A DNA stretch of 64,000 bases. Source: Eledone cirrhosa (lineage: Eukaryota). Below, one piece after another: positions 43,234 to 45,297 of the stretch (within the stretch, counting starts at the first letter, position 1; each line of letters starts with the position of its first letter). Under the pieces are notes generated by a model that saw nothing but the letters and a program-made list of their open reading frames with translations, made no database searches and was not told the DNA's origin. The DNA is taken from the NCBI GenBank assembly GCA_964016885.1, contig OZ024766.1, positions 21,576,001 through 21,640,000 on the forward strand, written 5' to 3'. The position numbers were made by a program, and so were the translations under genes.

Positions 43234-43753
43234 GAACGTGCTATGTGGTGTCGATGGTTGTGAATGATGGTTAAAAATGGTTGATGGTTAAAAATGGTTG
43301 ATGGTTAAAAATGGTTTATGGTTTGATACTGGTGGTGGTTGGTGATACACTGTTCAGTCGCCATCTAATGGTTTGTTTCTGGTGGTGATGATGGATCAAC
43401 TTAACCCCTCCCTTTCGTCTCGGCCATGGCTGGGCCAGTCGGATTCTTCTCGTCTGTTCGTCTTCCTCCGGTCGGGTCGGCTCGGCTCGGCTTCTCTGCT
43501 TTGGTGGTTTGCGGCGGTGGTGTGGTGTGTTTTTTTTTTTTTTTTTTTTTTTCATTTTTTTTTTTTAAATTTTCATTTTTTTTTCTTTTTTTTTTTTCAT
43601 TTTTTTTTTTTTTTTCCCCCTTTCTTTTTCCCTTTGGCGGGTGACCCAGCACCCTCGGCTTTCGTCTTCATTTCGCCATCGTCCCTGACAGAGAGAGTCA
43701 GGGACAGCGAGATATGAAAAAGCATTTATATATAATATATATATGTAAAAATA

Positions 43754-43823
<70 letters not shown>

Positions 43824-44010
43824 ATATATGTATATGTGTGAAAATATATAATATATAATAATATATATAAAGATATATATATTTATATGTGTGTATAAAG
43901 ATATATATATTTTTTTATTCATATATATATATTCATTTATATACATATATATATATTCATATATATATATATATATTCATATATATATTTATATATATAT
44001 ATATATATTC

Positions 44011-44043
<33 letters not shown>

Positions 44044-44232
44044 ATATTATATATATATATATTATATATATATATATTATATATATATATATTCATATAT
44101 ATATATATATTCATATATATATATATATTCATATATATATATATATATTATATTTGTGTATATATATATATGTATATAATTATATATACTGGAAAAAGGA
44201 TTATGGAAAACCAGGAGCAGATATGGAGATGA

Positions 44233-44267
<35 letters not shown>

Positions 44268-45297
44268 AATATATATATAAACACATACACGCCTATATAT
44301 ATATATCTATATATCTATATATATATATATGTGTGTGTATTTAATGAGATTTGGCAGGCCAGGAAATGATATGGAAGCCTGGCCTAATGTTTCCTTAGTT
44401 GGGGTAAAGCTTCCTACCCCCTTATTATTTTTTTTTTTTTCGGGGGTGTGTATGGCTTTTCTCCGGTGGAGAGAAAGTACCTGGCCCCTGATTTAGATGA
44501 AACTAATATAGTAGAGCCATGTAGATGACGAAGATGCTGGCGAAGAAGAAGATGATGATGATGGCGATGATGATGTCAGAAATGTCGATGGTGTTGATGG
44601 CGGTTGTGAACAAGGATGATGATTGCGGTGTCTGCACGCTCCACGCTTGCTACAGTCGGAGATGGCTCCATGCCAGGATGGTTAGATGGTTAAATGGTTT
44701 GGCTGGCCCCTCAAGAATACGATGGTGTTGATGGTTAAACTGCTCCAGACAATGTACACAGATGGTTTGATGGTTAAACTGCTCCAGACAATGTACACAG
44801 ATGGTTTGATGGTTAAACTGCTCCTGGCAATGTACAGACTGATGGTTCGTCATGGATTGATGGTTAAACTGCTCCAGACAATGTACACAGATGGTTTGAT
44901 GGTTAAACTCTCCCTGGCAATGTACAGATGGTTCGTGATGGTTTTGATGGTTAGAAAGAAGATTGGTTACTCAACATGGTACACCCAGGATGGTTGATGA
45001 TGCTTTATGGTTTCGTGGTTTGATGGTTTGATGGTTAGTGACCTCATGTTTGACATAGCCGAAATGCCACATGGTATTTTCATGACAATGGTAAATAAAT
45101 AGATAAACACATACACAAGCACCCACATATATATATATACACATATGTATATATATATACATGTGTATATATGTATATATATAGATAGTTGTTTTTGGTT
45201 GACAAGAAAGAATGTTTTGCAAATTTCCCCCCTCCCCCCACCGCCCCACCCCCCAAAAAAAATGTTTTCATGTCTGACCAAGCTACAGCATTTTCAG
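43234..45297 (+). other. Candidate poison (PTC) exon / regulatory region in the intron after the zinc-knuckle exon
   Basis: Acceptor ttaacag| at 43233, in-frame TGA at 43265-43267, consensus donor CAG|gtatgt at 45298, and about 28 ATGGTT motifs. The intron position matches that of the SRSF7 poison exon. Confidence 0.45.

Follow-up and report, generated by a model that had tools for sequence, protein, structure and literature searches.

A premature-stop exon rich in UGGU motifs in a divergent SRSF3/7-family paralog of Eledone cirrhosa

A stretch of the octopus Eledone cirrhosa genome, located at 43234-45297 of an analysed window of 64,000 nucleotides to which positions refer throughout, begins as a spliced exon carrying a premature stop codon. 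Its host gene is a separate paralog of the SRSF3/SRSF7 family with an altered RNA-binding pocket, and a motif dense in this stretch recurs in the orthologous introns of other animals. A preliminary description had taken the stretch for an intron, a view corrected by a spliced RNA junction to 43234. We consider it fairly probable that the UGGU clusters found here are the paralog's own binding sites, the whole being a feedback exon of the SRSF3/7 type read with a changed specificity. Clusters of UGGU occupy the equivalent position in molluscs and insects, which makes it likely that the protein attaches to its own transcript here and thereby switches itself off; the RNA preference predicted for it differs from that of its human relatives.

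The host gene and its RNA-binding domain

The gene model comprises four coding exons (Table 1) that yield a protein of 343 aa, in which domain search recovered the order RS stretch, RRM, zinc knuckle and RS domain. The first coding exon is 97% identical to an Octopus vulgaris protein. The features that mark the SRSF3/SRSF7 (SRp20/9G8) subfamily, a CCHC knuckle after the RRM followed by an RS domain, are present, and the RRM is nearest to SRSF3/7, with SRSF3 or SRSF7 chains making up the best four of six PDB matches of an ortholog (P0008). The cytosine pocket of this subfamily, on the other hand, was not found in the paralog. In SRSF3, Tyr13, Glu79, Ser81 and Asn82 hold the first cytosine of CNNC (the C1 pocket; PMC11100773). 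When the divergent proteins were aligned to human SRSF3, the equivalent of Tyr13 was His in 121 of 123, that of Glu79 was Ser or Thr in all 121 proteins matched at this position, that of Ser81 was Ala in 22 of 22 and that of Asn82 was Arg or Lys, mostly Arg, while Trp40, Phe48 and Phe50 were kept. With these pocket residues replaced a changed RNA specificity of some kind is expected. The RRM had been described as divergent before, and the four replacements bear this out.

The gene itself had been called SRSF7-like. Instead, a canonical SRSF3/7 gene adjoins it directly upstream, in tandem, on the same strand and with identical intron positions around the RRM and the knuckle. This neighbour keeps the YVGDL, P(S/A)GFAF and VEHS motifs, and the RRM signature of the divergent group is PPCFAF. 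Orthology of the paralog to the canonical gene was considered and rejected, the latter being a separate neighbour with its own clade: six canonical SRSF3/7 rows grouped together with support of 99/92. The tree was a rough one, with 105 columns and unsettled bootstrap. It placed the window protein with Octopus and Sepia and gave no support to the monophyly of the divergent group (48/66, midpoint root). Its rows for the window and for L087 contained some wrong residues taken over from intron matches, three named proteins are missing from it, and assignment to phyla failed for L084/L094/L101 and L097.

Named carriers of the divergent type were cephalopods, bivalves, the annelid Owenia, crustaceans, termites, crickets, lice, rotifers and hemichordates; no vertebrate, fly or nematode stood among the named matches listed (120 of 682). 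Databases mislabel the paralog, variously as SRSF7-like, transformer-2-like or RSRC2-like. In five rotifer and copepod-type proteins (P0115-P0118 and P0120), the high scores and the lengths hint at two RRM-knuckle units per chain.

A spliced exon with an early stop

Four coded runs (X1-X4) were placed on 43150-43735. In one of the four, a single contig of X1 (depth 8) runs from the end of the knuckle exon straight into 43234. X1 showed no cover of the upstream intron, and X2-X4 run through it like DNA. A search for RNA among the runs found no matching run on record as such, and X1 is counted as RNA by its spliced junction only. A stop codon follows 11 codons after the junction, so that the stretch begins a poison exon. 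The resulting product would have 159 aa and comprise the RS stretch, RRM and knuckle, without the main RS domain. The acceptor proposed in the preliminary description is used in spliced RNA, and the junction brings in the immediate premature stop proposed there. The acceptor at 43233 is weak, with a score of 3.4. An alternative acceptor proposed at 43214 fared less well, scoring only 0.4, and no junction to it was seen in the runs over 43150-43735.

No GT in the 14.8-kb intron scores higher than the CAG/GTATGT donor noted earlier, and the 3' end of the exon at 45297, and hence its length of 2064 nt, is predicted from this donor. Measured to it, the stop lies 2030 nt before the predicted downstream junction, well over the 50-55 nt that mark a poison cassette exon. 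X1 contains 0.47 of the sampled words of 44380-45300. It has a gap at 43312-43735, where the other three runs show some cover (one study, filtered contigs), and there may be a shorter exon, or two exons, instead of a single one of 2064 nt. A perfect 9-bp hairpin (stem around AGAGAGA) lies inside the cassette at 43680-43706, 3' of the poly-T tract.

Table 1. Features of the paralog and its canonical neighbour (window positions unless a contig is named)
Feature	Position	Strand	Basis
Canonical SRSF3/7 gene	G000:C27:21573720-21575990 and window 16180-16281	same strand as paralog	
First coding exon: N-terminal RS stretch and most of RRM	30914..31188	+	gene model; RRM_1 E=4e-9
Exon for the end of the RRM and the CCHC zinc knuckle; donor in phase 2	35968..36138	+	gene model; zf-CCHC E=5e-5; junction contig end
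(GTT)n/(GGT)n tract directly 3' of knuckle-exon donor	36153..36293	+	sequence
Poison-exon acceptor, weak, TTAACAG/G	43209..43233	+	spliced contig X1 record 1; score
Poison cassette exon, 2064 nt if ending at the 45298 donor	43234..45297	+	5' junction in RNA; 3' end predicted
Motif island 1, 9 ATGGTT, including 17-bp unit x3.5	43254..43373	+	count; Tandem Repeats Finder
Premature stop TGA	43265..43267	+	2030 nt 5' of predicted donor
Poly-T and (TA)n microsatellite blocks inflating the exon	43530..44330	+	Tandem Repeats Finder
(GAT)n-type microsatellite, GAY-like but common genome-wide	44524..44575	+	repeat finder, genome search
Motif island 2, 19 ATGGTT, 39/90-bp, 8-bp and 9-bp units	44678..45036	+	single copy in genome search
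Predicted donor CAG/GTATGT	45298..45303	+	best-scoring of intron
RS-domain exon	50986..51069	+	gene model; matches Octopus sinensis full-length protein P0097
Last coding exon, RS and low-complexity tail	51727..52225	+	gene model

The motif in the window and in orthologous introns

Out of 30 ATGGTT hexamers in the window, 28 sit inside 43234-45297, all on the sense strand and split between two islands (Table 1). An earlier count by eye had given about 28 in the same arrangement. The antisense word AACCAT occurs four times in the window and not once inside this stretch. The base 5' of ATGGTT is G in 21 copies, A in 5 and T in 2. The genome was sampled in 60 evenly spaced 10-kb segments, and none of the 480 strand-tiles of 2064 nt cut from them held at least 9 ATGGTT (maximum 6, mean 0.41). 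The shorter word TGGT is found 47 times in the stretch against 2 ACCA, and TGGTGG is distributed 37:0 between sense and antisense in the post-knuckle intron of the paralog. A further 34 TGGT lie in 36150-36300, and the GT-rich tract directly behind the knuckle exon possibly represents more sites of the same kind.

Such a cluster could in principle reflect neutral repeat drift within a real exon, with GT-rich composition behind any signal shared between species. Tandem Repeats Finder (score 30) placed 25 of the 28 copies in arrays, so that the claim of an only partly tandem repeat holds in one respect and not in another: most copies are in arrays, but the array units holding the word are several and unrelated (10/17, 8, 39/90, 9 and 8/16 bp) and the 28 copies have 22 distinct 14-nt contexts. 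Comparable arrays exist elsewhere in this minisatellite-rich genome. Some non-simple hexamer was present at least 28 times in 68 of 240 background tiles, which makes a hexamer cluster as such ordinary in Eledone. The genome yielded 781 matches to an ATGGTT dimer pattern, ATGGTT-rich satellites occur elsewhere, and the three such sites inspected were all arrays. One satellite array, on the minus strand of G000:C1:33649000-33900000, has a 40-bp repeat unit that includes GATGGTTGATGGT; of the first 100 dimer-pattern matches listed, 99 fall in it. Tandem duplication has multiplied the copies in the octopus, and within the octopus genome alone the ATGGTT cluster proves little.

Other origins for the islands were also considered. 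A dispersed transposable element, a possibility raised at the outset, was looked for in the genome and rejected, since the islands are essentially single copy in a search that skips very common words. For island 2, 51 of 52 matches cover the GAT microsatellite only and the remaining one is the window itself; for island 1, a single 97-bp match of 75% lies inside a cryptic repeat. A coding role on either strand was rejected after a six-frame look that gave low-complexity frames only. In Rfam, none of 122 weak matches over 42000-46500 reached the family gathering score, and nearly all fell on TA repeats.

We then turn to orthologs. A metagenome scan gave 80 loci, from which seven genomic post-knuckle introns, one per sequence type and with the window left out, entered a k-mer test comparing the largest count in 150 nt with dinucleotide-preserving shuffles (Fisher combination). 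These were one bivalve, one termite, one rotifer-like and one unplaced intron and three related loci of unplaced phylum (L084, L094 and L101) that form a single clade; five further termite loci, short loci and the copepod-type and rotifer-type loci were excluded. TGGT ranked first of 256 4-mers (Fisher p 1e-6) and reached p<0.05 alone in 5 of the 7 introns, TGGTT and ATGGT ranked first and second of 1024 5-mers, and ATGGTT ranked fourth of 4096. The antisense words ranked far lower in the same test (149, 509, 776 and 2868). Among 47 divergent-type loci with at least 500 nt downstream, most of them transcripts skipping the exon, TGGT passed p<0.05 in 15 (6 termites) and ACCA in 1. No TGGT cluster passed 0.05 in the three canonical loci.

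In six loci the cluster begins right after an AG and stops before a donor. Five of these candidate cassettes span 202-318 nt, are all of phase 2 and each contain a stop 111-313 nt before the end; their 1289 nt hold 45 TGGT against 40 in 8966 nt of flank, and 4 ACCA against 33. The sixth has 411 nt, with 14 TGGT and no ACCA. The borders of the cassettes were drawn by eye with the motif in view, and a generic splice-site score failed to single out their acceptors. Overall, a candidate exon appears at the homologous position across orthologs, with no cluster seen within 3 kb in the copepod-type genomic loci L076, L077, L091 and L037 or in the rotifer-type L081. Conservation had been proposed as a check in cephalopods, and the motif recurs far beyond them. 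The cassette 5' ends are unalignable across phyla (mean column identity 43%), which suggests that the motif is kept and the surrounding sequence is not. Within termites the cassette is 99-100% identical versus 88-94% for the distal intron (distinct comparisons).

These results bear on repeat drift. The same word tops the test in other phyla, against shuffles that preserve dinucleotides and on the sense strand only, several unrelated repeat units share it, and the termite cassette is more conserved than its own distal intron. We therefore rate drift as highly improbable.

The base before TGGT in the ortholog cassettes is T in 24 and A in 21 of 59 cases, and the shared core is thus (A/U)UGGU. 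The hexamer AUGGUU, put forward initially as the motif, is indeed clustered in the octopus and is better seen as the octopus variant of this core. The same counts weigh on the idea that the motifs serve as decoy 5' splice sites (G/GU) that keep the introns on either side from being spliced, or as AUG traps, and so produce a retained-intron nuclear RNA, including an architectural or sponge RNA, in place of a target for decay. Every ATGGTT does contain GT and ATG, and the donor score of one copy is 2.3; in 3 of 5 orthologs an AUG near the cassette end shares the frame of the RS exon that follows; and nuclear bodies of mammalian SRSF7 assemble on a retained intron that carries 76 motifs (PMC9022966). 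However, with T as frequent as A before TGGT, AUG is not the conserved feature, and the window cassette is without an in-frame AUG. The 5' junction is spliced in the RNA run with no upstream intron cover, and folding of the 5' part (43234-43730) is no better than that of shuffles (z -0.06). Decoys or traps are accordingly an improbable reading. The three cassettes with such an AUG at their 3' ends, L097, L084 and L094, resemble the SRSF7 Split-ORF in this respect. L084, L094 and L101 share TGTAGAT directly before the donor.

Protein databases also contain isoforms with short tails. RefSeq includes truncated isoforms of both Octopus bimaculoides and Mytilus californianus. The ending DVVNGYGMVL is common to isoform X2 of O. 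bimaculoides and to O. vulgaris, and a squid-like transcript has the tail ELVYGMVMNGVW. Bivalve tails read NVVMVLIV.. and QVVMVY, a krill tail MMCYGMVLW and an Owenia tail LLMVLYG, and a prawn and a crayfish have an identical 25-residue tail. Of 116 distinct tails, 12 are short and hydrophobic; Met-Val (ATG GTN) occurs in 6 of these 12, 7 times in 387 positions against 0.65 expected. The isoforms of cephalopods, bivalves, krill and annelid are consistent with an exon at the homologous place.

Some neighbouring sequences deserve mention. In termites (L082-L089), the first 800 nt after the knuckle exon, 5' of the cassette, are 97-98% identical (distinct comparisons), which equals the coding exon and suggests further regulatory elements there. 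Copepod-type transcripts (L035, L044, L045 and L073) show an acceptor followed by TGGTT words; the next gene stands close behind, and for this reason they were kept out of the argument. In these four and in L076, L077 and L091, only a short part of the gene follows the knuckle, and close behind lies another gene, which we take to resemble a GPI ethanolamine-phosphate transferase.

Proposed feedback and related systems

In the mechanism that we propose, the paralog protein would bind the (A/U)UGGU clusters in its own poison exon. The weak acceptor would be used only with enough protein on the motifs behind it, and the bound protein would promote inclusion of the exon, committing its own mRNA to nonsense-mediated decay or to the 159-aa product. 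Selection would keep the density of the motif and not the sequence of the exon, and in Eledone tandem duplication and microsatellites would have stretched an exon of 200-400 nt to about 2 kb. By analogy with SR-gene biology we infer the decay of the message, the enhancer function and the direct binding.

UGGU resembles the motifs of other factors, and ESRP/Fusilli-type or RanBP2-type zinc-finger proteins are examples of GGU readers. The poison exon may be real and yet be read by another conserved GGU-binding factor, in which case cross-regulation would replace self-regulation. The sequence evidence on the exon and on motif conservation fits this equally, and cross-regulation among SR genes is documented (PMC4379411), but the change of motif accompanies the loss of the cytosine pocket in the paralog itself and the canonical neighbour, a single gene, has C-rich words instead. 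We regard a foreign reader as unlikely, though it deserves attention.

Self-regulation by the paralog, which we favour, has close parallels. SRSF3 and SRSF7 are reported to bind CNYC and GAY (PMC9022966, PMC7948361) and to regulate their own unproductive splicing (PMC9022966, PMC7948361, PMC4379411), as stated for SRSF3 in PMC4379411. The mammalian poison exons of SRSF3 (exon 4) and SRSF7 are similarly stop-bearing exons between the RNA-binding and RS exons, give a truncated RNA-binding half and are strongly conserved. In contrast to their CNYC or GAY, the motif of the paralog is (A/U)UGGU; the host here, a separate paralog, has an RS stretch at its N-terminus, and its exon is conserved across phyla by motif content and not by alignable sequence. 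SRSF7 feedback through Split-ORFs and nuclear bodies (Konigs et al. 2020, via the review PMC9022966) shares a dense post-knuckle motif cluster in an RRM-knuckle-RS gene, whereas the octopus cluster lies in an exon and the window cassette has no AUG in frame with the RS exons. The unproductive splicing of SRSF5/B52, deeply conserved and likewise based on an unproductive exon that different animals carry at homologous positions (Lareau and Brenner 2015, PMC4379411), concerns another subfamily; what is conserved in the paralog is a short motif that can be named and that would predict specificity. The same authors proposed that paralogs decouple their feedback after duplication as their specificities diverge (PMC4379411).

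Poison exons in SR genes are thus already known, as is deep conservation for SRSF5 (PMC4379411). In literature outside subscription papers, as far as its available parts go, we found no description of the paralog, its exon or a UGGU-binding SR protein. The accessible portion of a 27-species SR survey (PMC3173450) does not mention the paralog, and its species table is without mollusc, annelid or crustacean. We find about as much reason to accept as to doubt the broader proposal that a third bilaterian SRSF3/7-family factor recognises (A/U)UGGU, that the cluster in its own poison exon has been kept since before the mollusc-arthropod split while the surroundings turned over, and that pocket and feedback sites changed together after duplication, so that two orthogonal feedback circuits now lie next to each other in this genome, with C-rich sites in the canonical gene and UGGU in the paralog. 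If true, this joint change would allow the specificity of a factor to be deduced from the poison exon of its gene. For SR genes, feedback through poison exons is textbook knowledge; here it would operate in a mislabelled paralog, and the exon would predict for the SR family a new specificity, UGGU, linked to four particular RRM substitutions. One could then test the notion that splicing factors, once duplicated, uncouple their feedback through joint changes in the protein and its sites. The exon would also exemplify a regulatory feature that has lasted several hundred million years in sequence that no longer aligns, and UGGU would join the splicing code of molluscs, annelids, crustaceans and non-dipteran insects.

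The canonical SRSF3/7 gene of Eledone, alike in its intron positions, differs from the paralog in having kept the canonical motifs and in its C-rich post-knuckle intron, which holds a single ATGGTT in 16.2 kb and shows sense to antisense counts of 20:6 for CACCAC and 20:2 for CTACTA, against the 37:0 of TGGTGG in the paralog (one gene pair, much of it microsatellite). Two parts of this intron, 5018-5366 and 8434-8835 of the window, are unique blocks rich in CNYC, GAC, (CTA)n and (CAC)n, possibly a candidate poison exon with canonical motifs and an acceptor near 5060. Finally, an intact intronless 238-aa copy of the canonical SRSF3/7 lies at L024:1489-2205 (G000:C3), probably a retrogene that would lack the poison exon.
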